This document shows, in pieces, positions 1 through 12,009 of a DNA stretch of 12,009 nt. Within the stretch, counting starts at the first letter, position 1. The number at the start of each line of letters is the position of its first letter. This DNA comes from a virus, in UHGV virus genome UHGV-0151214; one strand, written 5' to 3'. A model generated the notes under the pieces. It searched no databases, was not told the DNA's origin, and was given only the letters and a program-made list of their open reading frames with translations. A program made the translations under genes and the position numbers.

Positions 1-1488
1 GACCCTTATGCGCAAGCTGGAGAAACAATTGGCGGGTATTTAGTTCCAGGAGTTGGAACGGCAGGAAGCATGGCTATAGGATCACTGGCAGAAGCCGCAA
101 ACCAGAAAGGCGATTTCGCGCAAAATGCAGCCATAAACGCCGGAGTTAACCTTGCCGCTCAGGGTGTTCTTTCCGCAGCAGCAAAGGGAATAGGGCGTGG
201 AATAACGGCTATAAAAGGCGATATCGCGCCAGAAGTAGCGAAAAAAATTGCCACCTCAGAATCGATGGGCGTGACACCTATGACATCTGATGTTATCCAG
301 CCGAAAAATGCTTTCACTCGCGGTCTTACTCAGGATGCCGAGGGGGCTTTGCTCGGGACAGGCTCAAAGCGAGCGGAGCAATATGCAACGCGTAGTAAGT
401 TGGTAAGTAATTATTTTGACCGTTTTGGTGAGTACAACCCGGATGATGTGGTGAAATCTCTGACCACCACGTTAAGGGGACGGAAGGATGCCGCTGGCGC
501 TGTTATCAATGACGTCACCAATAAAATGGGTAATGCCGCAGTTGATACCACAAATACCATGAATGCTCTGAATACAGCGATCGCAAGACAGGAACGGCTT
601 GGGACGTCTGCCAATCAAAGCCTGCTTACATCCTTGCGTAACCTACGTGAAGAATTAGCAAACCCTGCAACTGATTTGGATGTTACGTTTGATCTCTTGC
701 GTCAGCACAGAACAGCATTTAGATCTAATGTTCAGGGAGATGCTATGGTCTTCCCCAACCAGGCAAAAGCAGCTACCAATATGGTAGAGAATGCAATGTC
801 AAAAGACCTTCGTAACGCAGTTGCTAAAAACCTCGGTGCATCAGACGCAGCAAAATACCTTAAAGCAAATTCCGATTATGCAAACGTTTATAATAAGGTG
901 CTTAATAAAAACATTGCTAACAAACTCAACAAGGCAAGCAGTGAAGCCAGTCCTGAACTTATAAATACCGTTGTATTAAGCAGAAAACCATCTGACGTGA
1001 AACGAATCTGGAGCGCACTGGATGATAAAGGGAAAGATGCTATGCGTGCAGCTTACGTCAGCAAAATAGCGGAAAAGGCCGGTGACTCTCCAGCCAAGTT
1101 CATCACTGAAGTTAATAAGCTGAAATCTCAGTCAGGCGGTGAAATTTACAACACTATTTTTTCTGGAAAGCACATGAAAGAACTTGATGCTCTTCATGAA
1201 GTTCTACAGCAAACAGCAAGGTCAGACACCGCAAATGTAGTAACTCAGACGGGGCAATCGCAAGCCAACAGGATAAGGACGATTGGCGCAACTGCGACTC
1301 TTGGCGTATCAATGGGGCTTGAGGCTGGTTTCGGTGCAATGATGCGCTTGTATGAATCCAAAGCAGCAAGGAATGCTCTCTTACGCTTGGCAAACACCAA
1401 AGCAGGAACACCAGCCTATGAAAGAGCGCTAAATAATGCTGCGAATGCCATCAGACCGCTGTTTGCTACTGAGGCAACACAGCAGTGA
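1..1488 (+). CDS. DNA ejection (injection) protein, P22 gp16-like, 5'-partial; the reading frame is open from base 1 so the true start is upstream of the window
   Basis: Frame 1 has no stop from position 1 to TGA at 1486-1488 (at least 495 codons in window). The product is Ala/Asn/Lys-rich and low-complexity, typical of P22-type ejection proteins. It sits immediately upstream of an mnt/arc/ant region and tailspike, where P22 has gene 16. Assignment is by composition and synteny only. Confidence 0.55.
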
Positions 1489-1505
1489 CTAAATGCCATG
1501 GATGG

Positions 1506-1955
1506 CTATTTTTTAGTGTAATAATCATCAAAATCGCAAGAAACAGATATCACAAAACCTGAAGTCATAGAAAAAGACAGGGTTTCACATGCCTTTCCGG
1601 CTTGATGGTATGCATTGATGCCACCGTATACGGATTCTCTTGATGAAAACAATGATTTTTCACCGTTTTTTTCTACAAGAATATGCCCATCTGAATCATT
1701 AATAAACCAAACAGAAATAGAGGAGCTTTCGCCAAGGAATGTTCTGTTGAATACCATGGGTGATTTACCCTTGACAACATTTTCTGCGCGCATAATCAGC
1801 TCAGCATTTTTTTTGCTATTTTTTTGTTCTGTATAGATTTTGTCTGCCACAAAATAAACAATGGCAATGGCTAACAAAGATAGGGAAATCAGCAATGCCT
1901 TTTTAATCAATTTTTTTGCATCCCTGTAAATCTCAACTGATAATTTTTCACTCAC
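1506..1955 (-). CDS. Hypothetical membrane-anchored protein (one N-terminal TM helix, about 110-aa C-terminal domain); candidate superinfection-exclusion protein by position (SieA-like locus)
   Basis: Minus-strand ORF with likely GTG start at 1953-1955, preceded by a perfect AAGGAGG Shine-Dalgarno (plus 1961-1967) at 5-nt spacing. Hydrophobic segment ALLISLSLLAIAIVYFVA follows a Lys-rich N-terminus. The longer 221-aa version in the ORF track would overlap the divergent gene and lacks an RBS. It occupies the slot between gene 16 and mnt where P22 carries sieA. Confidence 0.55.
   Translation of the reverse strand: MSEKLSVEIYRDAKKLIKKALLISLSLLAIAIVYFVADKIYTEQKNSKKNAELIMRAENVVKGKSPMVFNRTFLGESSSISVWFINDSDGHILVEKNGEKSLFSSRESVYGGINAYHQAGKACETLSFSMTSGFVISVSCDFDDYYTKK
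1916..1944 (+). promoter_or_regulatory. Candidate sigma70 promoter for the 1986..2351 gene (TTGCAT, 17-bp spacer, GATAAT)
   Basis: TTGCAT at 1916-1921, a 17-bp spacer, GATAAT at 1939-1944, about 40 nt upstream of ATG 1986. It overlaps the 5' end of the divergent minus-strand gene. Motif match only. Confidence 0.3.
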
Positions 1956-1985
1956 ACCAACCTCCTTAGTTTTGCGCAGGATACC

Positions 1986-2351
1986 ATGAAAAAAGTTAAC
2001 ATTGGAAACGTACCAAAGATGCTCGTTCCGCTCTTTGAGAGCGGTACAATTGTGTTTTGTAGAGACTTTCCAGAATGGCAACGCCTGCATCAAAAACTTG
2101 GCGTTGACGTGCATGACTCGGACGCCAACGGAGCGTCTCATACAATGAGTAGCGAGAATGGTGTTTTGCATGTGATAGGCGTGTTCAATGGCAAACTATC
2201 TACTATTGCCCATGAGTGCGCTCACATGGCATTCGATATCTGCTCAAGGGTAGGTGTTGATGTTGAACCAGGAAGAGCCAACGAGACTTACTGCTACTTA
2301 ATGAGCAGGCTTGTTGAGTTCTGCGAGCGACATATCAAAAAGCCGGAGTGA
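1986..2351 (+). CDS. Small (121 aa) hypothetical protein with an HExxH motif (TIAHECAHMAF); possible minimal zincin-like metallopeptidase fold
   Basis: ATG at 1986 with AGGA 4-5 nt upstream; clean 121-codon ORF. The HExxH sits in a predicted helical context with Glu residues 14-20 aa downstream as possible third ligand. No family recognised by eye. Confidence 0.6.
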   Translation: MKKVNIGNVPKMLVPLFESGTIVFCRDFPEWQRLHQKLGVDVHDSDANGASHTMSSENGVLHVIGVFNGKLSTIAHECAHMAFDICSRVGVDVEPGRANETYCYLMSRLVEFCERHIKKPE

Positions 2352-2410
2352 ACCGGCTTGATTATTACTTTTTGCTGTCTGGAGTTCGCTTATCCAATAC
2401 CCAGCCATGA

Positions 2411-2647
2411 CCTGGCTTTTTAGCAACTGCAGATCGCACAATCAATGTTCCATTCCACGGAACAAATCTCTTTTTGGTCAGCATTAACAATGAACCTTAC
2501 GTTCCTATGAAACCCGTTGTAGAAGGCATGGGTATGGTTTGGGCTGCTCAATTTGTTAAATTAAAACAGAGAGTTGTCAAAGGTATTTCGGAAATCGAAA
2601 TACCTTCTGCTGGCGGCGCAGGCTGCACCAAAAAAGAAACCAATTAA
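2411..2647 (+). pseudogene. Remnant of an antirepressor (Ant-like) N-terminal domain; no ATG start at the homologous N-terminus
   Basis: Frame open from stop TGA (2408-2410) to TAA (2645-2647). Translation TINVPFHGTNLFLVSINNEPYVPMKPVVEGMGMVWAAQFVKLKQ aligns with residues about 11-55 of the intact Ant encoded at 3960..4862 ([45 protein letters not shown]). Similarity ends after KLKQ and the frame terminates about 25 codons later. Confidence 0.55.
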
Positions 2648-2690
2648 TATATTTTTCATTTTGATTCCAAATAGTTATAGGATGAAAGTT

Positions 2691-2876
2691 ATGACCATAG
2701 AAGAACGCCTGAACAACATTGAGTTGAATCAAACCCTGCTTGACCAGCGACTTTCAGATCTTGAGCTTAAAGATCTAGATGCGCAAATATTAGAAGCAGA
2801 AGCCAAGCTCTCCAGCTTAAACCACCGTAAGAAGCAAATCCGCAATAGAATTACTCAGGGACGCGGAAGCCGTTGA
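2691..2876 (+). CDS. Small hypothetical coiled-coil protein (61 aa; alternative start ATG 2682)
   Basis: ATG at 2691 with AGGA (2679-2682) 8 nt upstream. Product MTIEERLNNIELNQTLLDQRLSDLELKDLDAQILEAEAKL... has heptad-like Leu spacing and a basic C-terminus. The TTG-initiated 100-aa version in the track overlaps the ant remnant and is less likely. Confidence 0.4.
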   Translation: MTIEERLNNIELNQTLLDQRLSDLELKDLDAQILEAEAKLSSLNHRKKQIRNRITQGRGSR

Positions 2877-2885
2877 AATCCTAGT

Positions 2886-3203
2886 CTATTTTTTCTCAGA
2901 GCTCATATTGTAATAGGTGGTATAAATAGAGATTGATTTCTGACATGCTTCAAGAAATTGCTGCGGAGTCATCCCAAGCCTTGCTTGCTCTGTAGTAAGG
3001 AATCTCTGTAAGAATTCATTCCCACCTGGCATGTTTGTAGATTCTTGGAATATTGCCATTTGTTTGATTGCACCACACATACCAGCCATTTTCGAAGCTA
3101 TCATGAGGCCTTGTATTTCATCAAAACTGCTATCGTCTGATTTTGTTTCTGCGTTAGCTATGCTCGAGAGACACAGGAGCAATAGGATAGCGATGCGTTT
3201 CAT
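2886..3203 (-). CDS. Small secreted (periplasmic) protein, 105 aa, with cleavable signal peptide and two Cys in the mature part; co-transcribed and translationally coupled with mnt
   Basis: Minus-strand ATG (3203-3201) overlaps the mnt stop (3202-3200) as ATGA. N-terminus MKRIAILLLLCLSSIANA-ETK is a classic Sec signal peptide with an AxA cleavage site. Two Cys in the mature part could form a periplasmic disulfide. Confidence 0.6.
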   Translation of the reverse strand: MKRIAILLLLCLSSIANAETKSDDSSFDEIQGLMIASKMAGMCGAIKQMAIFQESTNMPGGNEFLQRFLTTEQARLGMTPQQFLEACQKSISIYTTYYNMSSEKK

Positions 3204-3451
3204 TTTTCACCGTTGCCATGCATACATTTTAACTTCTCAACCTCATGCTCAAGCTCTATCAACCGCGATGCTATAGTTGCAATATCTAGTGCTTGAATAT
3301 GTTTATTTTTTTCAGTCCATGCCTCAAGTGCTGCTACCATCTCAGCATTTAATGAACGAGAATTAGCCTCAGCCAGCTCAATAAGACGTTCCTTTATCTC
3401 TACAGGAAGCCTCAGATTCACTTGAGGGTTTTTGTACTTACGATCAGACAT
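3200..3451 (-). CDS. mnt: Mnt-like ribbon-helix-helix repressor (83 aa)
   Basis: NLRLPVEIKERLIELAEANSRSLNAEMVAAL matches the P22 Mnt N-terminal RHH region (NFRMPMEVREKLKFRAEANGRSMNSELLQIV, from memory). Same length as P22 Mnt (83 aa) and divergent from the arc-ant operon as in P22 immI. AGGA SD 8 nt upstream on the minus strand. Confidence 0.85.
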   Translation of the reverse strand: MSDRKYKNPQVNLRLPVEIKERLIELAEANSRSLNAEMVAALEAWTEKNKHIQALDIATIASRLIELEHEVEKLKCMHGNGEK

Positions 3452-3488
3452 CGGCGCATCCTGAATAATTATTTACCACAGGATATGT

Positions 3489-3537
3489 AGGTATCTATTG
3501 ACTATCAATGCGTACCTAAATACTATGTATGCGTACC
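3489..3537. promoter_or_regulatory. Divergent promoter/operator region between mnt and arc: candidate rightward promoter (TTGACT, 17-bp spacer, TACTAT), an overlapping 29-bp imperfect dyad, and two 9-bp direct repeats
   Basis: -35 TTGACT at 3498-3503, a 17-bp spacer, -10 TACTAT at 3521-3526, about 30 nt upstream of arc ATG 3557. Dyad AGGTATCTATTGACTATCAATGCGTACCT (3489-3517) matches its reverse complement at 20 of 29 positions and is centred on the -35. ATGCGTACC occurs at 3508-3516 and 3529-3537 (21-bp period). Confidence 0.45.
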
Positions 3538-3556
3538 ACATACAGCGGAGGATGCA

Positions 3557-3697
3557 ATGAAGGTAAAAACACTGCGTATGCCAGAGAAGTTAGAAAAAAT
3601 CCTTGAAGAGAAAGCAAAGGAAGAGTGTCGCTCATTTAGCGCAGAAGTAATTAAACGGGTGTTGGACAGCCTGAAAAGAGAGGGGATAACAGTATGA
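3557..3697 (+). CDS. arc: Arc-like ribbon-helix-helix repressor (46 aa)
   Basis: [46 protein letters not shown] aligns with P22 Arc (…RWPREVLDLVRKVAEENGRSVNSEIYQRVMESFKKEG, from memory). GGAGGA SD upstream of ATG 3557. Below the ORF-track size cut-off, found by manual translation. Confidence 0.8.
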   Translation: MKVKTLRMPEKLEKILEEKAKEECRSFSAEVIKRVLDSLKREGITV

Positions 3698-3897
3698 GTA
3701 AAGAATGTTGTTTCTGCGGCATTAGCGAATCAGACGCTGATCAAACATACATTTACTCTAAAGAAACAGGTCGGATGCTGTGTAGTGACTGCGTGTTGGA
3801 CATCATAAGATACAAGCATCTTGGATGTTCTGCCAGCATTAGCAATATAGGTGAAGTATACGAAGGGAAAGATATAACTGATAGAGCAGAAAGTTGA
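3694..3897 (+). CDS. Hypothetical small Cys-rich protein (67 aa; possible zinc-ribbon-like), translationally coupled to arc
   Basis: ATG 3694 overlaps the arc stop (3695-3697) as ATGA. Cys at positions 5, 6, 8, 30, 33 and 45 (CCFC … CSDC … C). It lies between arc and ant where P22, as remembered, has a short intercistronic region. Coding status uncertain. Confidence 0.4.
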
Positions 3898-3959
3898 AGC
3901 CCCAACTGCGGGAACAGTCAGGGCTTCGGTTGTCAGTAAATCCGTGGAGAAAAACCAAC

Positions 3960-4862
3960 ATGAATAGTATAGCAATTTTAGAAGCAGTGAACACCTCTTA
4001 CGTACCATTCAACGGTCAGCAAATTATCACCGCCATGGCTGCCGGAGTTGCATATGTTGCGATGAAGCCAATCGTTGAAAACCTTGGAATGAGCTGGTCA
4101 ACGCAGCAAACAAAACTCATGAAGCAGATTAGCAAATTCAACTGTGTTCATATGAACATGGTTGCCGCTGATGGGAAGCTTCGTAAGTTACTCTGCCTTC
4201 CTTTGAAGAAGTTAAATGGATGGCTGTTCAGCATCAACCCTGAGAAAGTTCGTGCTGACATCCGCGATAAACTGATTCAGTACCAGGAAGAATGCTTTAC
4301 TGTGCTGCATGACTACTGGACAAAGGGAAAGGCAGAAAATGCACGTAAGAAAACATCTGTTGATGACAGGACTCCGCTTCGTGATGCTGTAAATATGCTG
4401 GTCAGCAAAAAGCATCTAATGTACCCAGAAGCTTATGCAATGATTCATCAGCGTTTCAATGTGGAAAGTATTGAAGAGCTTGATGCATCTCAGATACCGC
4501 AAGCCGTAGAGTACATCCACAGGGTAGTGCTTGAAGGTGAGTTCATCGGCAAACAAGAAGAGTTACCAGCGCCGAAACTGGATATTAACTTCCCGATTTC
4601 ATGGTTTGCTGAAAATGCACCTTACGCCATTATCAGGCAGCAATGCGGTGATACTGTTGCTCTTGACCGCAGCGCACTCGTTGAATGCAGTCCGGCGTAT
4701 AAACTAATCGATATTCTGACAAAAGCGGGGTATGACGTTTCAGCAGTAAGAGCCGAGCTAAAAGCACTTCGCCATTTAATGGCTGAGCAAAGCTGGGCAC
4801 TTAAAGAGATAGCTTCATTCGCAGCGATACGTGATAGAGCGTGCCACTCAATTAAACTTTAA
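3960..4862 (+). CDS. ant: Antirepressor Ant (300 aa), P22 Ant-like
   Basis: Downstream of arc in the same orientation. ATG 3960 preceded by GGAG; 300 aa, the same length as P22 Ant. Its N-terminal domain is duplicated as a remnant at 2411..2647. The track's upstream start at 3894 overlaps the preceding ORF and lacks an SD. Confidence 0.8.
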
Positions 4863-4902
4863 CTACCTGCACGAAAAGTGTAGGTCAATAACCAACGCAA
4901 CG

Positions 4903-4927
4903 ACCCAGCTTCGGCTGGGTTTTTTTT
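4903..4927 (+). terminator. Rho-independent terminator downstream of ant
   Basis: Stem ACCCAGC / GCTGGGT with loop TTCG, followed by a T8 tract (4920-4927). Confidence 0.7.
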
Positions 4928-4985
4928 ATGCCCAAAATTCACCGTAGCCATGCTGCGGCCATTCCTTGTATCTGGAGCAAATTAA

Positions 4986-7928
4986 ATGACAGACATTACA
5001 GCCAATGTTGTAGTGAGTATGCCATCGCAACTCTTCACTATGGCACGTTCTTTTAAAGCCGTAGCCAATGGAAAAATTTATATCGGTAAAATTGACACTG
5101 ACCCGGTAAATCCTGAAAACCAGATTCAGGTTTGTGTAGAGAACGAAGACGGTTCTCACGTTCCTGTTTCGCAACCAATCATTATTAACGCTGCTGGTTA
5201 TCCGGTATACAACGGACAGATTGCCAAGTTTGTAACCGTGCAAGGCCATTCTATGGCTGTTTACGATGCTTATGGGGCGCAGCAGTTCTATTTTCCTAAT
5301 GTGCTGAAGTATGATCCTGATCAGTTACGGCAGCAATTAGAAGACCCAGATGGAGCGAATAAATACCCAAAACTTCAGATAGCAAGATGGAGAGACAGTT
5401 ATGATGTAAGAGGTTGGGGGGCTATTGGTGATGGTGTTCATGATGATACATCAGCTCTATCAGAATTACTTTCTGTTGCAACAGGTGGTGAAAAGATAGA
5501 TGGGCGAGGGCTTACTTTTAAAGTATCAACTCTTCCAGATGTCAGTCGATTTAAAAATGCTCGTTTTTTATTTGAGAGAATACCGGGTCAGCCTCTTTTT
5601 TATGCTTCTGAAGATTTTATCCAGGGAGAGTTATTTAAAATTACAGATACACCGTGGTACAACGCCTGGACGCAGGATAAAACGTTTGTATATGACAATG
5701 TCATCTATGCGCCTTTTATGGCTGGAGACCGCCATGGTGTAAATAACCTCCATGTTGCATGGGTTCGCTCAGGAGATGACGGGAAGACCTGGACAACGCC
5801 GGAATGGCTTACAGATTTACATGAAAACTATCCCACAGTTAACTATCACTGCATGAGTATGGGGGTTGTCAGAAATCGCCTTTTTGCTGTAATTGAGACG
5901 CGGACCGTGAGCGGAAATAAACTGCAGGTTGCAGAGTTGTGGGATCGCCCAATGAGTCGCAGCCTTCGCGTTTATGGTGGTATAACGAAAGCAGCAAATC
6001 AGCAAGTCGCTTATATTCGCATTACTGATCACGGATTATTTGCTGGTGATTTTGTCAACTTCTCAAACTCTGGTGTTACAGGTGTTACCGGGAATATGAC
6101 GGTGACTACTGTTATTGATAAAAATACCTTTACAGTTACGACGCAAAATACCCAGGATGTGGATCAGAATAACGAGGGTAGATACTGGAGTTTTGGTACA
6201 TCATTTCACTCGTCACCATGGAGAAAAACCAGTCTTGGAACTATTCCTTCTTTTGTTGACGGAAGCACTCCTGTTACTGAGATTCACAGTTTTGCGACGA
6301 TTAGCGATAACAGTTTTGCTGTTGGCTACCATAATGGTGATATTGGTCCACGCGAGCTTGGGATACTCTATTTCTCTGATGCTTTCGGTTCTCCTGGTAG
6401 CTTTGTTCGCAGACGCATACCTGTAGAATATGAGGCGAATGCATCTGAGCCATGTGTAAAATATTATGATGGCATTCTGTATCTGACGACCAGGGGGACA
6501 TTAAGTACTCAACCCGGTAGTTCATTGCACAGAAGCTCTGATTTAGGTACATCATGGAATTCTCTTCGCTTCCCAAATAATGTTCATCACTCAAACCTTC
6601 CTTTTGCCAAAGTTGGCGATGAGCTGATTATTTTTGGCAGTGAGCGCGCATTTGGTGAGTGGGAAGGAGGAGAACCTGATAACCGTTATGCAGGAAATTA
6701 TCCAAGAACATTTATGACCAGAGTTAACGTCAATGGGTGGAGTCTGGATAATGTAGAGTGGGTTAATGTTACTGATCAGATTTATCAGGGCGGAATAGTT
6801 AACTCTGCGGTTGGTGTTGGTTCAGTTTGTATCAAAGACAACTGGCTGTACTACATTTTCGGTGGGGAAGACTTTCTAAACCCATGGAGCATAGGGGATA
6901 ACAACAGAAAATATCCTTATGTTCACGATGGTCACCCGGCTGATTTGTATTGTTTCAGGGTGAAAATTAAACAGGAAGAATTTGTTTCAAGGGATTTTGT
7001 CTACGGAGCCACTCCTAACAGAACGCTTCCTACTTTTATGTCGACGTCAGGCGTGAGGACGGTTCCTGTACCCGTTGATTTCACAGATGATGTTGCCGTC
7101 CAGTCACTGACTGTCCATGCAGGTACATCAGGACAAGTTCGCGCGGAAGTCAAACTTGAGGGTAATTACGCCATTATTGCGAAGAAAGTACCGTCTGATG
7201 ATGTTACCGCTCAGAGATTAATCGTTAGCGGCGGTGAAACAACGTCTTCAGCAGATGGTGCAATGATAACGTTGCATGGTTCCGGAAGCAGTACTCCACG
7301 TCGCGCGGTATATAACGCACTCGAACATCTTTTTGAGAACGGAGATGTTAAACCTTATCTTGATAATGTAAATGCTCTTGGTGGTCCGGGAAACAGGTTC
7401 TCGACAGTTTATCTTGGCTCCAATCCTGTGGTTACCAGTGACGGAACATTAAAGACAGAGCCGGTCTCTCCTGACGAAGCATTGCTGGATGCCTGGGGTG
7501 ACGTCAGGTATATCGCTTATAAATGGCTGAACGCTGTCGCTATAAAGGGGGAAGAAGGGGCGAGGATACATCATGGTGTAATCGCGCAGCAACTTCGTGA
7601 TGTTCTTATTTCTCACGGACTCATGGAAGAAGAAAGCACAACATGCCGCTATGCCTTTCTTTGCTATGACGATTATCCCGCAGTATATGATGACGTCATT
7701 ACTGGCCAAAGGGAAATGCCGCTGACTGATAATGACGGGAGCATCATTGTTGATGAGGATGATAATCCAGTGATGGTAATGGAAGACATCATTGAGCGCG
7801 TTGAAATAACGCCAGCAGGATCTAGATGGGGGGTCAGACCTGATCTCTTATTCTATATCGAGGCAGCATGGCAGCGCAGAGAAATGGATAAGATAAAAGA
7901 GCGGGTTCAGTCTCTGGAAGAACGTTAA
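4986..7928 (+). CDS. Tailspike protein (980 aa): P22-type head-binding N-terminal domain, sialidase-like catalytic region with two Asp-boxes (probable endosialidase, GH58-like), and C-terminal self-cleaving chaperone domain (peptidase S74-like)
   Basis: N-terminal about 110 aa ([11 protein letters not shown]…[22 protein letters not shown]…VLKYDPDQ) closely matches the P22 gp9 head-binding domain. Asp-boxes SGDDGKTW (aa 262-269, nt 5769-5792) and SSDLGTSW (aa 517-524, nt 6534-6557). [15 protein letters not shown] motif is also present. The C-terminus has S-DGTLK (Ser818 at nt 7437-7439) and [11 protein letters not shown], resembling the autoproteolytic chaperone domain of endosialidases and tail fibres. 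Confidence 0.85.
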
Positions 7929-7954
7929 AAAAAAGCCCGCAAAATATTGCGGGC
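7927..7954. terminator. Hairpin terminator at the tailspike 3' end; the U-tract is on the minus-strand side, so it is stronger for leftward transcription
   Basis: A8 run (7927-7934), then stem GCCCGCAA (7935-7942), loop AATA, stem TTGCGGGC (7947-7954). On the minus strand this reads hairpin plus T8. On the plus strand the hairpin is followed by ATCAAAAACGG. Confidence 0.5.
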
Positions 7955-8234
7955 ATCAAAAACGGAGTTGGTGAAAAGTTATCTTTGAATTCTATCATGA
8001 ATCAGTACGTATTTTAAATACATGTTCAGGTTTATTACACCATAGCATTATTAAATACAAAATTAAGTCTATGGTTCCTGTACAACTGCCCCCACTCTGC
8101 TGGCTCGTTCTGTAAAATCATTAGTACTTTTATTGAGATATATGATATGGAACAATAATGATTCATATATGGTTTACTATGCGGGTTTAGTCATCAATAA
8201 TTGACTGGCTTATAGATAGTAAACAGGAGAAAGT

Positions 8235-8639
8235 ATGTCTGCTCAAGTAACAAGTGAGCAATTAAATCAGTTGCTTAGTTTTGGTTCTCTTGCTGCAGTT
8301 ATTGCAGGTGTCCCTCCGGAGGTTGCTTTAGGGGCTTTGGCTGGGGCGGTAATTTTTGTTACCTCTGCAGTAGAGTACCCTATCCGTCGCCGGGTGCTCC
8401 TGTCGATGCTCAGCTTTCTTTGCGGCCTTCTCTTTTACAAACCAGCAGCATCAATTCTTATCGGCATAGCCAGCCTGATCCCTACCATCACGCAGGACTC
8501 TTTTGAAAAAGGGATTGTTTTCTCTGCAGGCGCATTCGTGTCAGCAATTGTCGCTGTGCGTATTGGTATATGGCTCTATCACCGTTCCGATAATCCACGC
8601 GAGTTAATTCCGGGGAGAAAAGACGATGGTAACGCATGA
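8235..8639 (+). CDS. Holin-like or antiholin-like membrane protein (134 aa, about 4 hydrophobic segments, charged C-terminal tail)
   Basis: ATG 8235 with AGGAG 7 nt upstream. Multiple TM-length hydrophobic stretches and a charged C-terminus ([19 protein letters not shown]). First gene of a cluster with a second holin-like gene, endolysin and spanins. Confidence 0.5.
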   Translation: MSAQVTSEQLNQLLSFGSLAAVIAGVPPEVALGALAGAVIFVTSAVEYPIRRRVLLSMLSFLCGLLFYKPAASILIGIASLIPTITQDSFEKGIVFSAGAFVSAIVAVRIGIWLYHRSDNPRELIPGRKDDGNA

Positions 8640-8934
8640 GTTTTTTTTGCTTATCACTAATGCAGTTATTTGCACTGGCATAGCAATTCGCGTTGTCACA
8701 TTCCGGCGTAACGGCTCTCAACATCGAAGGTGGGGAGGATGGCTTGCTTATTTCCTGATTGTTGCTGCGGCCAGTATTCCTGTTCGAGTCGCCTATGCAA
8801 TCTGGTTACGTACGCCAATGGCTGTGGATTTATCTGAGGTCATTATCAACGCTGTCATGCTGGCTGCGGTTATTAAAACGCGCGGTAACGTCGTTCAAAT
8901 TTTTAAAGTATCGAGGTCTAAACATGGAGATTAA
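8626..8934 (+). CDS. Putative holin (102 aa, 3 TM segments, basic C-terminal tail)
   Basis: Three hydrophobic segments and C-terminal [19 protein letters not shown]. Overlaps the preceding gene by 14 nt and the endolysin start by 11 nt. Confidence 0.6.
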
Positions 8935-9553
8935 ACAATTCCAGCGAGCTGCTGGTATCAGCGAGGCACTGGCCGCACGCTGGTTCTCGCATATAACTTC
9001 TGCGATGAAAGAGTTTGGTATCAGCAAAGCAGAAGATCAGGCAATGTTTATTGCTCAAGTCGGGCATGAGTCTGGGGGCTTCACCAGGTTGCAGGAGAAT
9101 TTCAACTACAGTGTCAGCGGACTGGCTAACTTCGTTCGGGCTGGGCGTCTCACTCAGGGGCAGGCTAATGCACTGGGGCGCCGTGCTGGTGAACCACCAT
9201 TGCCACTTGAGCGCCAGCGCGCGATCGCAAATCTGGTATACAGCAAACGCATGGGGAACAATGCCCCTGGTGATGGCTGGAATTACCGAGGGCGCGGACT
9301 TATCCAGATTACCGGTTTGAATAACTATCGTGATTGCGGAAACGGTCTGAAGGTTGACCTGCTGGAGAGCCCTGAACTGCTGGCGCAGGACGAATATGCG
9401 GCTCGTAGCGCGGCGTGGTTCTTCGCCAGCAAAGGATGCATGAAGTATACCGGCGATATTGCACGTGTAACTCTGATTATCAATGGTGGCCGGAACGGCA
9501 TCGACGACCGGCGAGCGCGGTACATCACTGCCAGTAAGGTGCTGGCGGTATGA
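8924..9553 (+). CDS. Endolysin, glycoside hydrolase family 19 (chitinase-like phage lysozyme), 209 aa
   Basis: GH19 signatures [12 protein letters not shown] (catalytic Glu in HES), a second Glu in LQENFNY, and [19 protein letters not shown] 8924 preceded by GAGG. The track's longer version from 8759 reads through the holin in a frame with no lysozyme similarity. Confidence 0.85.
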
Positions 9554-10032
9554 TCTGGGCATTCGTAAAAGCATACTGGAAACAGTTTCTTATCGTGGCA
9601 GTGCTTGCTGTTCTGGTCATATCAGGAGTGGTTGCCTGGAATATACACGGCAGTCGCCAGTACGATGCCGGGTATGCTCAGGCGGAAGAAGACCGCAAAG
9701 CCGAAGAAGACAAAGTTCGTCAGTACTACGAACAGGAGAAAGTGACCAATGAACGTGAAGCTCAGCAGAGGATCGACCAGGCGCGCAATGATGCTCTTGA
9801 TGCTGCCGCTAGCGCTGGCCGGTTGCAGCAACAACTCTTTGCCATCCGTGAGCAGCTCAGGCAGTATAACGCCATTGTCGGCGCTGGGTCGTCAGCCGCA
9901 GACACCGGAGTTTTGCTTGCCGACGTGCTCAGCAAATCTCTCGAGAGAAACAGACAACTGGCAGAGTATGCTGACCGGGCAGCCGAAGCCGGAAGAGTCT
10001 GCGAAAAACAGTACGACACTTTGACCAGATAG
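9550..10032 (+). CDS. i-spanin (Rz-like inner-membrane spanin subunit), 160 aa
   Basis: ATGA overlap with the endolysin stop. N-terminal TM ([18 protein letters not shown]), a long charged coiled-coil periplasmic region, and a Cys near the C-terminus. Sits immediately after the endolysin and contains an embedded lipoprotein ORF. Confidence 0.75.
9788..10024 (+). CDS. o-spanin (Rz1-like outer-membrane lipoprotein), embedded in the +1 frame of the i-spanin gene
   Basis: [13 protein letters not shown] has a lipobox (LAGC) and a signal-peptidase II site. The mature part is about 58 aa, Ser/Pro-rich with additional Cys. It lies entirely within 9550..10032 in another frame. Start taken at ATG 9788; the track's 9749 start adds an unlikely N-terminal extension. 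Confidence 0.65.
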   Translation: MMLLMLPLALAGCSNNSLPSVSSSGSITPLSALGRQPQTPEFCLPTCSANLSRETDNWQSMLTGQPKPEESAKNSTTL

Positions 10033-10184
10033 CATGGCATTTTTCATGGTACTGATTTCCGGTGACGGTATATAAAACGGTACGGGAAAAATTGAGATTT
10101 GGAAAAATGTTATCACTCAATTGGTTATGGTTATCGTAAATAATTGAGTGGAATGATTTGACCCTGCACTATGAATGAACAAAA

Positions 10185-10248: not shown

Positions 10249-10788
10249 TTAGTTAAACCAGCTGTCCGATTTGTTCTCTTCTGCTTTGCCCACGCTTTTC
10301 ATCAGATCTCGACCGCCCTCAGTCATATTCCTGTTTGCGTCAGCTTCAGATTGCACCACATCGGTTTGCGCAGCTTTGTGCTTCAGTTCCTGATCGATAA
10401 ATTCGTTTTCTCGCTTAACGCGGGCTTCTTCTTTCGCCAGCGCCAGTTTTTGTTTCTGAATCTCTAAGCTGCGTAGCTCATCTTCATAACTTTGATCGCG
10501 TTTTTTGTCCGCAGAGGCTTCGGCGTCCAGTTTATCCTGACGAGCTTTCTTATTTGCCGCTGCCGTTGCCGCTCTTTTGTTAGCGGCGGCCTGGGCGTTT
10601 GCGCGACGTTGCTTCTCTTGCTGGATTTCCCTGTTGCGCTCCGCGACCCATTCGTCATGCTGCCTTTGCTCTTCATTTTTACCTTGCTGTTCCGCTTCTG
10701 CGACAGCAGAGAGTTGATCCTGCAATGATGAGGCGATAGCCGGATAGCTTAAGGAGGCTAAGATGGCGCAAAGAAAAACTTTCTTCAT
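10249..10788 (-). CDS. Secreted Lys/Glu/Ala/Gln-rich (coiled-coil-like) periplasmic protein, 179 aa, with signal peptide
   Basis: Strong GGAGGAG SD upstream of the minus-strand ATG. N-terminus MKKVFLCAILASLSYPAIA-SS is a Sec signal peptide. The rest is highly charged and helical (…QQEKQRRANAQAAANKRAATAAANKKARQDKLDAEASADKKRD…). Lies 16 bp downstream of the lipoprotein gene on the same strand, so probably an operon. Confidence 0.6.
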   Translation of the reverse strand: MKKVFLCAILASLSYPAIASSLQDQLSAVAEAEQQGKNEEQRQHDEWVAERNREIQQEKQRRANAQAAANKRAATAAANKKARQDKLDAEASADKKRDQSYEDELRSLEIQKQKLALAKEEARVKRENEFIDQELKHKAAQTDVVQSEADANRNMTEGGRDLMKSVGKAEENKSDSWFN

Positions 10789-10803
10789 GACTCCTCCTGA
10801 TCA

Positions 10804-11322
10804 TTAGCTCTTTTCAGGACATTTGGTATTTGGCTGAATACGCGTTTCGTTATACGTCGTGGTAATAACAACGGCTAAACCTGTCGTAAACTGGCACTCT
10901 TTACCCACCTGGGTGGAGGTATACACTTTGGTGCCTTCCTTATACGTTAGAGAAACACCTTCCACTAAGGTTTTATCATTCACCATAGAACCCGCTGCCG
11001 CGCCAACAGCTCCGCCGCCAACTGCACCTGCCGTCGTTCCGGAATTGCTGCCAGACCCGACGTTGTGGCCAATAACACCGCCAGCGACTGCACCAATAAG
11101 CGCGCCGAAGGCTTGTGCGTTTCGTTTATTTTGGGAGTTGTCTACGGCAACTTTTGCGGGAAGAATGGAAATAATATTAACGGTTTTAGTTTCTTGTTTG
11201 GTATTCAGTTGATCGGTTTGATAAACATCGGCGGCATGATCATCAGCATTTGACTGGCATCCTGCCAGAGTGAATGACGCTAACATTGCCACAGGCAGAA
11301 GACATTTTTTAAATTTCATCAC
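10804..11322 (-). CDS. Outer-membrane lipoprotein with glycine-zipper region (SlyB/Pcp/YcfJ-like family), 172 aa
   Basis: Lipobox FTLAGC after a signal peptide. Gly-zipper segment GALIGAVAGGVIGHNVGSG…AGAVGGGAVGAAAG resembles the glycine-zipper motif of YcfJ/SlyB-type lipoproteins (recalled, not searched). AAGGA SD 7 nt upstream. The upstream region 11323-11510 is strongly AT-rich. Confidence 0.65.
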   Translation of the reverse strand: MMKFKKCLLPVAMLASFTLAGCQSNADDHAADVYQTDQLNTKQETKTVNIISILPAKVAVDNSQNKRNAQAFGALIGAVAGGVIGHNVGSGSNSGTTAGAVGGGAVGAAAGSMVNDKTLVEGVSLTYKEGTKVYTSTQVGKECQFTTGLAVVITTTYNETRIQPNTKCPEKS

Positions 11323-11632
11323 TATTCCTTGTTATACACATTACGAAAAATAAGACATTTAAGATCATCAAAAGAGGAAAGTAAATGTATTGCGTATAAA
11401 GGAATAGATTAAATTTATTAAAATTCATGTGGAAAATAATTTATAAAAATACATCATTAAAACATATGTATTAATTTTATATTTATTTCGCAGCCAAACA
11501 GGATAAACATCAGTCAGGACAAAGACGTAAAATTTAAGATGAAAGAATATCTGCCGCTTTGATAATCCCAAAGAGCAAAAGCATCCGACAGCGAGGTGCC
11601 GTTATGTTCTGTGAAAGTGGAGAAGGTAACCG

Positions 11633-11806
11633 CTAACGTTGTACCGGTGATTCGACGGAGAGTGTGGATTGCTGAGCTTCTTTTTTGCTCTGATGGTGCT
11701 GCCATGCACCGACGGACGAGTAGATAAAACGGCCAAAGAAGAAGATAAAGCTGATGAGCAGTACGATACGGGTCATGCGACTGTTAAATCGGTGTCGTTT
11801 TCGCAT
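11633..11806 (-). CDS. Possible small membrane protein (57 aa from ATG 11806; alternative start ATG 11776)
   Basis: Minus-strand ORF encoding MRKRHRFNSRMTRIVLLISFIFFFGRFIYSSVGAWQHHQ… with one clear TM segment. The track start is GTG with no convincing SD. Coding status uncertain. Confidence 0.2.
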   Translation of the reverse strand: MRKRHRFNSRMTRIVLLISFIFFFGRFIYSSVGAWQHHQSKKEAQQSTLSVESPVQR

Positions 11807-12009
11807 ACTGGTTGCCTGACTCACAAAAGGTTCCTTGATGTATGTCCCACGCTGTGGACGGTACTTACATTAAGGCACAACAGGACAAAATGGTCAATTC
11901 TTCGTTATGTAAAAAAGCGTCAGTGGATACATATTTTAATGTTATGGAAGTTAATTTAATTATTTACAATGATGATGTAATAATGATGAATTAACATGAT
12001 AAACGTAAT

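Follow-up and report, generated by a model that had tools for sequence, protein, structure and literature searches.

The DNA analysed here, hereafter the window, is a stretch of 12,009 nucleotides from virus genome UHGV-0151214. It is the first 12 kb of contig NODE_69_length_54064_cov_12.89 from ENA ERZ773421, a SPAdes-style short-read metagenome assembly, and position 1 is the end of that source contig, inside a gene of P22 gp16 type; the part of this prophage upstream of that gene is outside both window and contig. The following features were assigned.

1–1488, plus strand: 3' part of the gene for a P22 gp16-type DNA-ejection protein
1506–4862: P22 immI-like region, with small ORFs, Arc/Mnt-family genes and the antirepressor gene ant
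3200–3451, minus strand, and 3557–3697, plus strand: Arc/Mnt-family genes, within the immI-like region
3960–4862, plus strand: antirepressor Ant, within the immI-like region
4986–7928, plus strand: tailspike, 980 aa
5507–7899, plus strand: endosialidase module of 2,393 bp
5589–6127, plus strand: switch from P22-like to epsilon15-like haplotype inside the tailspike ORF, by crossover or by a change of assembly path
7927–7954, minus strand: intrinsic-terminator-like hairpin (stem 7935–7942/7947–7954, loop 7943–7946, T8 tail), abutting the tailspike stop codon
7929–8234: AT-rich spacer, most likely the vacant variable (conversion-gene) slot that epsilon15-like phages have between tailspike and lysis genes
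8235–8639, plus strand: membrane protein of the Phage_holin_8 family, similar to epsilon15 gp23; the lysis cassette starts with this gene
8626–8934, plus strand: holin, Phage_holin_3_7, three transmembrane segments
8924–9553, plus strand: GH19 endolysin, 209 aa, with the start as called in the contig and in ZX5
9550–10032, plus strand: Rz i-spanin, DUF2514
9749–10024, plus strand: Rz1 o-spanin embedded in Rz, with lipobox LAGC
10143–10158, plus strand: attR core of an epsilon15-like prophage, at the guaA 3' end
10249–11824, minus strand: host chromosome, with yfgI (10249–10788), yfgH (10804–11322) and yfgG (11633–11824)

The left part of the window has the character of a P22-like prophage: an ejection-protein gene, an immI region with arc/mnt-type genes and ant, and a tailspike with a P22 head-binding domain. 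Homologues of the first gene in the P22-like prophage loci L016–L024 carry the Pfam domain Phage_P22_gp16, and the immI-like region, whose gene layout recurs in at least seven other assemblies, gives Pfam matches to Arc and P22_AR_N. The tailspike matches Head_binding (6.5e-66), End_beta_propel (1.2e-232) and other Pfam families; its domains are the P22 head-binding domain (aa 1–113), a K1 endosialidase N-terminal domain, a beta-propeller, a beta-barrel, a stalk and a C-terminal intramolecular chaperone. The late end of the window, however, is not that of a P22-like prophage, as a lysis cassette follows the tailspike gene. In L016–L024, CUS-3, 720R6, phiv205-1, E15 and CE10 the tailspike gene is followed instead by neuO or an acyltransferase gene, int or ybhB-bio.

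The lysis cassette is complete and has the same orientation as the tailspike gene, as a preliminary description of this DNA had stated; it occupies 8235–10032 and includes Rz/Rz1. To its right lie the E. coli core genes yfgI, yfgH and yfgG (K-12 annotation), and this host part was matched by all 5,426 complete E. coli genomes searched. Homology to K-12 starts at 10143, in the last codons of guaA, and homology to phage vB_EcoP_ZX5 stops at 10158; the two overlap on ATTGAGTGGAATGATT. The 17-mer ATTGAGTGGGAATGATT is the attP/attB core at the guaA 3' end, experimentally verified for ZX5, and it also serves phiV10 and epsilon15 (PMC9782041). Because the K-12 and ZX5 homologies overlap on this verified core, we place the end of the prophage at 10143–10158, directly after Rz and with host DNA next to it. 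The window has 16 nt here, one G fewer than the 17-mer; the full 17-mer was present in 8/8 comparison sequences and the one-G deletion in the window only.

The interval between the tailspike and lysis genes

The tailspike gene ends with a TAA stop codon at 7926–7928 and the next long ORF begins at 8235, leaving a gap of 306 bp (7929–8234). The GC content of this gap is 0.33, against 0.44 for the tailspike gene, 0.52 for the lysis cassette and 0.445 for the entire window. No ORF of 60 aa or more lies within it, and the largest that touch it have 54 aa (minus strand, overlapping the end of the tailspike gene) and 43 aa; the preliminary description of an AT-rich spacer of about 300 bp devoid of such ORFs was therefore accurate. 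A good ribosome-binding site, caGGAGaaagtATG, precedes the ORF at 8235, and the gp23-like gene at the head of the lysis cassette would thus have a ribosome-binding site of its own.

The same description took the spacer to be a junction between modules. This proved not to be the case. Window positions 5507–10158 align with phage ZX5 in one ungapped collinear match, 99.6% identical over 4,653 nt, and the 2.4 kb at the 3' end of the tailspike gene, the spacer and the lysis genes form a single block within it. When the spacer alone was used as a query against 50,697 phage records, it matched only ZX5 and two Phi05 records. It was present in 72 of the 5,426 complete E. coli genomes at 97–99.7% identity, and in all 72 genomes and all three phage records the context was that of a ZX5-type prophage. 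In strain IHE3034 the spacer lies inside a complete epsilon15-like prophage whose lysis cassette adjoins yfgI.

Gene order points the same way. ZX5 has, in succession, tailspike, 306 bp, membrane protein, holin, endolysin, Rz and int, and the IHE3034 prophage has tailspike, 306 bp, lysis genes and attR-yfgI. In epsilon15, phiV10, TL-2011b and EC.W1-9 the tailspike gene is followed by a variable insert, then by the lysis genes, attP and int. The contents of the interval are as follows.

epsilon15: a terminator, then gp21 and gp22, minus strand
phiV10: oac, minus strand
TL-2011b: oac, plus strand
EC.W1-9: two small ORFs, plus strand
ZX5 and the window: 306 bp, geneless

Tailspike-then-lysis is the conserved order of epsilon15-like phages, with a variable slot between the two that can house lysogenic-conversion genes; this slot appears to be empty in the K1-specific epsilon15-like members. 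The arrangement is ordinary for such phages and has already been published for ZX5. The preliminary description had allowed that a tailspike-then-lysis order conserved among well-characterised P22-like phages would make the present one an ordinary variant; in substance the order is conserved, in epsilon15, phiV10 and ZX5 and not in P22-like phages. In an epsilon15-like lysogen, the lysis genes, lying after the tailspike gene and before attP/int, would sit at the right edge of the prophage. Comparison with ZX5 shows, by homology and gene order, that the spacer and the lysis cassette make up the native right arm of a prophage of ZX5 type, integrated at guaA.

We also looked for traces of former occupants. 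Searches with tblastn and short-word blastn, in which epsilon15 gp21/gp22, phiV10 and TL-2011b oac, neuO-type acyltransferases and the 720R6 downstream ORF served as queries, found no conversion-gene remnant in the spacer above chance (best E = 0.03 over 22 aa). Over seven ZX5-type copies, seven sites varied in the 306 bp of the spacer against eight in the 1,798 bp of the lysis genes; the spacer is therefore some five times more variable per base than the adjoining genes, a difference that is based on small numbers and would be compatible with weak constraint. Beyond ZX5 and the two Phi05 records, no diverged homologue of the spacer was found among the phage records, so that there was no material for a covariation or conservation test. 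By its position and by comparison with related phages, the spacer is most likely an unoccupied or vestigial conversion slot.

The hairpin next to the tailspike stop codon is consistent with such a slot. Its stem of 8 bp contains six GC pairs and closes a 4-nt loop, and the A8 that precedes the stem on the plus strand reads as a T8 tail after it on the minus strand; beyond the hairpin, the plus strand continues with ATCAAAAAC, which has no T-run. The U-tract thus lies on the minus-strand side, as had been noted before. With a GC-rich stem-loop and a U-run, the minus-strand hairpin has the make-up expected of an intrinsic (Rho-independent) terminator, and it was the one terminator-like site in 7700–8500, against 0.5 expected. 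In epsilon15 an annotated terminator occupies the equivalent place, between the tailspike stop and the end of the leftward gp21, and we infer from this position that the hairpin represents the terminator position of a leftward slot cassette. It would halt leftward transcription of the slot before this could enter the tailspike gene in antisense. Because the plus-strand hairpin has no U-tract, late transcription could run on past the tailspike gene and reach the lysis cassette.

Two other interpretations of the spacer were considered. One, that of the preliminary description, is that the 306 bp are themselves a recombination scar or an att remnant, left where the end of a P22-like late operon acquired a lysis module or a second, tandem prophage. 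The GC content falls to 33% exactly between the two modules and the last ~30 nt of the tailspike gene (7900–7928) are unlike those of CUS-3-type sequences, as a scar might lead one to expect; however, homology to ZX5-type sequence runs unbroken from 5507 through the spacer to 10158, and the spacer was never found outside a ZX5-type context. The preliminary description had proposed a search of the spacer for repeats of an att core; none was found there, the sole copy in the window being that after Rz, at 10143, and the direct repeats in the spacer were only short matches of chance size. We regard a scar at this position as extremely improbable.

The other interpretation is that the spacer is functional regulatory DNA rather than a vacant slot, and it takes up an earlier suggestion that the spacer holds a promoter for the lysis cassette or a small RNA. 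A minus-strand promoter (TTTAAA-18-TAGAAT with TG, at 8018–7989) together with the terminator at 7954–7927 would give a small RNA of ~55 nt, antisense to nothing annotated, and/or plus-strand promoters at 8133–8201 would drive the lysis cassette independently. In favour of such a function, the promoter-like and terminator-like sites on the minus strand are in the correct order, the fold z-score of that strand is −3.9 and the spacer is kept at high identity in the 72 genomes. Against it, the five promoter-like hexamers in the spacer (2.1 ± 1.5 expected) are no more than AT-rich DNA would yield, and the terminator stem by itself accounts for the fold score, that of the plus strand being unremarkable (z = −1.76). 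An Rfam scan of 7700–8500 at a permissive E-value gave only matches below the gathering score, all of them on the terminator hairpin, and no known RNA family. The variability of the spacer relative to the adjacent genes, and the want of diverged homologues on which covariation could be tested, also weigh on this side. Finally, overexpression of the ZX5 repressor reduces holin and endolysin transcripts by >99.9% (PMC9782041), as would be expected under lytic-cycle control but hardly with a constitutive promoter in the spacer. The earlier suggestion thus drew no support from Rfam, promoter counts or folds, and we consider a regulatory spacer, which would be compatible with either origin of the hybrid discussed below, to be improbable.

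The change of prophage type within the tailspike gene

If the spacer belongs to the right arm, the boundary with the P22-like part has to be sought elsewhere. Homology of the window to CUS-3-type sequences extends as far as 7899 and that to ZX5-type sequences begins at 5507, so that the two overlap over 2,393 bp. This endosialidase module is common to P22-like (CUS-3-type, here C-type) and epsilon15-like (ZX5-type, here Z-type) prophages at 99.5–99.8% identity, and it was found at 263 places in 194 of the 5,426 genomes.

An exact-protein look-up with the Ant protein of the window identified the P22-like parent. Positions 1–6127 of the window are 100% identical to the P22-like prophage L016, and the P22-like layout of the window recurs in at least seven other assemblies, there with a 981-aa tailspike and then ybhB-bioABFC. 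The window differs from L016 at 6128, 6287, 6346, 6353, 6424, 7232 and 7641 and then from 7886 onward, and at the sites of difference it carries ZX5-type alleles. The A at position 5537 of the window, in turn, is the base found in 52 of 56 C-type copies; 0 of 31 Z-type copies have it. There is a single switch, therefore, and it falls within a 540-bp SNP-free stretch that is identical in both copies. An attempt to paint the crossover against CUS-3 and ZX5 alone was misleading, as most polymorphisms are common to both classes; alleles of the module are shared widely between them. A clean single switch is what a real crossover is expected to give, and random bubble-popping would seldom give one.

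The preliminary description had suggested a mosaic join. It was right in that P22-like and non-P22 modules meet in the window, but the joint lies in the tailspike ORF, at 5589–6127, and not in the spacer. At this point, within the shared ~99.6% module, the window passes from a P22-like to a ZX5-type prophage, and the P22-like left part belongs to a separate prophage that is normally located beside ybhB-bio.

Assembly error or crossover between prophages

The join could have arisen in the assembler or in the bacterium. The two parents are separate prophages that reside together in single genomes: the 263 places in 194 genomes imply at least 60 double carriers, and CE10, IAI39, M21816 and Br_54_kylling hold both parents unrecombined, with IHE3034 and others as further examples of co-residence. 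The switch lies within a near-identical repeat that, at 2,393 bp, is longer than short-read inserts. The exact 980-aa tailspike protein is on record in the NODE_69 contig of ERZ773421 only, and the hybrid was found in none of the 5,426 complete E. coli genomes: the best of them covers 55% of the window, where coverage of at least 59% would be expected of a carrier.

Hybrids do recur among short-read metagenome contigs. With the tailspike as query we searched IMG/VR and a metagenome collection, and 96 further loci were examined by typing both ends. Among loci with both ends typed, those derived from isolates comprised 25 non-hybrids and no hybrid, and those derived from metagenomes 36 non-hybrids and two hybrids; the association is modest, with Fisher p = 0.02 when the complete genomes are included and 0.27 when they are left out. 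One hybrid, L095, joins an argW-type CUS-3 prophage (99.85%) to a right arm of the IHE3034 type (99.8%) as a SNP mosaic with multiple switches. In ST95 genomes the two copies of the module are direct repeats that lie 166 kb from each other and enclose hda, dapA and other genes. A C-to-lysis junction from a single crossover there could be found only on a circle cut out of the chromosome or within a tandem duplication. Because these direct repeats flank essential genes, the L095 junction cannot have arisen as a simple viable product, and L095 is almost certainly an assembly chimera, in which the endosialidase repeat misled the assembler in just the manner envisaged for the window. Two further lines were examined and set aside. 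Locus L108, considered as the reciprocal product of the crossover in the window, was rejected since it is ZX5-type up to 7892, and the contig ends in IMG/VR were rejected as evidence of breaks at the repeat since the records there are prophage predictions trimmed to gene boundaries.

The alternative is a real crossover in a K1 strain, in the shared module, between a P22-like prophage at ybhB-bio and an epsilon15-like prophage at guaA. It would invert ~2 Mb across the terminus and leave two hybrid prophages whose att sites do not match. The geometry allows it, as the C-type tailspike gene is on the plus strand next to ybhB and the Z-type gene, next to yfgI, is on the minus strand; they lie at 0.84 and 2.94 Mb in CE10 and at 0.79 and 2.75 Mb in IAI39. 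In genomes of this type the copies are inverted repeats on opposite replichores, and a viable inversion between them would give exactly the junction of the window. The clean single switch in a stretch identical in both copies also favours a crossover, as do the allele sharing between the module classes, which implies recombination in nature, and the occurrence in another sample of a contig of reciprocal polarity, L108. However, L108 is not the reciprocal of this particular crossover; the junction is missing from all 5,426 complete genomes, including at least four that hold both parents in suitable geometry; the exact hybrid protein is known from one low-coverage metagenome contig only; and L095 is a like hybrid in a geometry that forbids a simple viable product, which argues that assemblers do make such joins. 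The earlier idea of recombinant prophages therefore survives, but as a minority alternative to an assembly chimera, and we think it unlikely.

Given a source contig of low coverage, assembled from short metagenome reads, and a hybrid that was found in no finished genome, the P22-like/epsilon15-like join is most likely an assembler error, probably a path error through the repeat, a judgement that was made on assembled sequences rather than at read level. Taking the two parts of our interpretation together, we put at about 0.68 the probability that 5507–10158 is the native ZX5-type right arm of a K1-specific prophage and that its join to the P22-like part arose in assembly.

The main value of this result is as a caution. 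A 2.4-kb module of ~99.6% identity is present in two unrelated prophage lineages that are often co-resident in K1 E. coli, and assemblers of short-read metagenomes can cross it and produce hybrid prophages that resemble striking mosaics. If the join were real, a receptor-binding module would be a substrate for prophage-mediated inversion of the chromosome around the terminus. The resulting hybrid prophages, with their mismatched att sites, would not be excised by site-specific recombination, and one of them would combine P22-type virion genes with an epsilon15-type lysis cassette. Prophage-mediated inversions around the terminus are known in other bacteria, and a real join would for this reason be of only moderate interest.

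Comparison with known phages and chimeric contigs

On the P22-like side, the closest relatives are CUS-3 and the K1-specific P22-like prophages (Lederbergvirus; phiv205-1, vB_EcoP-720R6), which share the ejection gene, the immI-type region and the head-binding endosialidase tailspike. Window positions 1–7899 are 99.86% identical to a member of this group at the ybhB-bio site. In every member of the CUS-3 group examined, however, the tailspike gene is the last late gene; after it come neuO or an acyltransferase gene, int or att, and host DNA of argW or ybhB-bio, and never lysis genes. The end of the tailspike gene differs as well, over the last ~30 nt noted above, and the product has 981 aa in the ybhB-bio-site relatives and 980 aa here.

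The window resembles repeat-induced chimeric contigs in its 2.4-kb, ~99.6% repeat, its SPAdes-style source at 12.9x and the recurrence of such a join in L095. It is unlike them in that it shows a clean single SNP switch and not a random mosaic.

ZX5 (Uetakevirus; MW722083; Pathogens 2022, PMC9782041) is the named phage closest to the right part. It shares with the window the catalytic part of the endosialidase and the chaperone, the spacer, the lysis genes and the guaA att core, and equivalent prophages are found in the K1 strains IHE3034, APEC O1, CE10 and IAI39. ZX5 differs in its 1,039-aa tailspike, which has an N-terminal adaptor of epsilon15/T7 type, and in the epsilon15-like virion genes upstream, in place of which the window carries a head-binding domain of P22 type and P22-like genes; the att core of the window is also one G short. 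The right part of the window therefore has the gene order of a Uetakevirus (tailspike, slot, gp23-like gene, holin, GH19 endolysin, Rz/Rz1) and is collinear with a named member across the 3' part of the tailspike gene, the spacer and the lysis genes, but epsilon15-type adaptor and virion genes are replaced upstream by the Head_binding domain and by gp16-type and immI genes. Because of this head-binding domain and these upstream genes, the window as a whole is not a single Uetakevirus prophage.

The type Uetakeviruses epsilon15 and phiV10 have the same order of modules as the window, and the DNA of their lysis cassettes is 82–90% identical to that found here; their published attP core is the 17-mer given above. 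They differ in that the slot is filled by leftward O-antigen conversion genes (gp21/gp22 and oac, respectively) and in that their tailspikes target O-antigen, whereas an endosialidase of the type found in the window targets the K1 capsule.

Polymorphism in the endosialidase module

In the 2,393-bp endosialidase module of the tailspike gene (5507-7899), the majority of polymorphisms were found to be common to the P22-like (C-type) and epsilon15-like (Z-type) classes, as typed at loci L029-L124, which include some metagenome contigs. For example, 10 of the 56 C-type copies have the alleles of the Z type at 7886 and 7889, and T at 5588 is carried by nine of the 31 Z-type copies. This sharing of alleles suggests that the P22-like and epsilon15-like prophage lineages have repeatedly undergone gene conversion or exchange with each other. 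Position 6736 is G in the window and A in every one of the 87 further copies of the module that were typed (56 P22-like and 31 epsilon15-like), and this G is a variant private to the window's contig.

Further hybrid contigs and the terminator hairpin

Two more hybrid contigs are present in public metagenome assemblies. In the first of these, L095 (OLNK01001912.1), a CUS-3-type left side is joined to the spacer and lysis cassette of ZX5 type. The second, L108 (ERZ812616 NODE-5006, coverage 3.6), has a ZX5-type N-terminus joined to a C-type downstream region; it is Z-type as far as 7892, and beyond this point it shares 99.8% identity with the downstream region of locus L100.

The spacer that follows the tailspike gene contains a terminator hairpin (stem 7935-7942/7947-7954), the four-nucleotide loop of which (7943-7946) reads AATA in the window, AF14, PYO2 and IHE3034, whereas in ZX5, E23 and SF-468 it reads TATT. 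As these are reverse complements of each other, the loop has been inverted between the inverted-repeat arms that flank it. At 7954, C is found in no copy but that of the window, where it makes the closing pair of the hairpin G-C instead of G-T.

Attachment core, prophage arrangement and host flanks

It can be seen that the attR core of the window (10143-10158, ATTGAGTGGAATGATT) is the canonical 17-mer, ATTGAGTGGGAATGATT, without one G. The 17-mer is present in all eight comparison sequences (ZX5, IHE3034, AF14, PYO2, TL-2011b, epsilon15, phiV10 and the K-12 attB). The shortened core may be a real mutation, which would impair excision, or it may be a low-coverage assembly error.

We also noted that the chromosome of GCA_052982035.1 (CM129759.1) carries the P22-like endosialidase prophage twice, 40 kb apart (L018 and L019, at 3.28 and 3.32 Mb). 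Beyond one copy lies ybhB-bio, and beyond the other lie int and xis, an arrangement suggestive of tandem prophages at the ybhB-bio site.

In the intergenic region between host yfgH and yfgG there is a strongly AT-rich stretch (11301-11500, GC 0.215), and SNPs between E. coli lineages are densely clustered at 11430-11518. Host chromosome is contained in two phage records. That of TL-2011b (NC_019445.1) includes yfgI, yfgH and yfgG on the far side of the att core (record positions 41360-43105), with its yfgH homologue annotated as 'DNA methyltransferase', and that of 720R6 (ON470605.1) extends into ybhB and the bio operon. Host DNA can seem phage-derived through matches to these two records.
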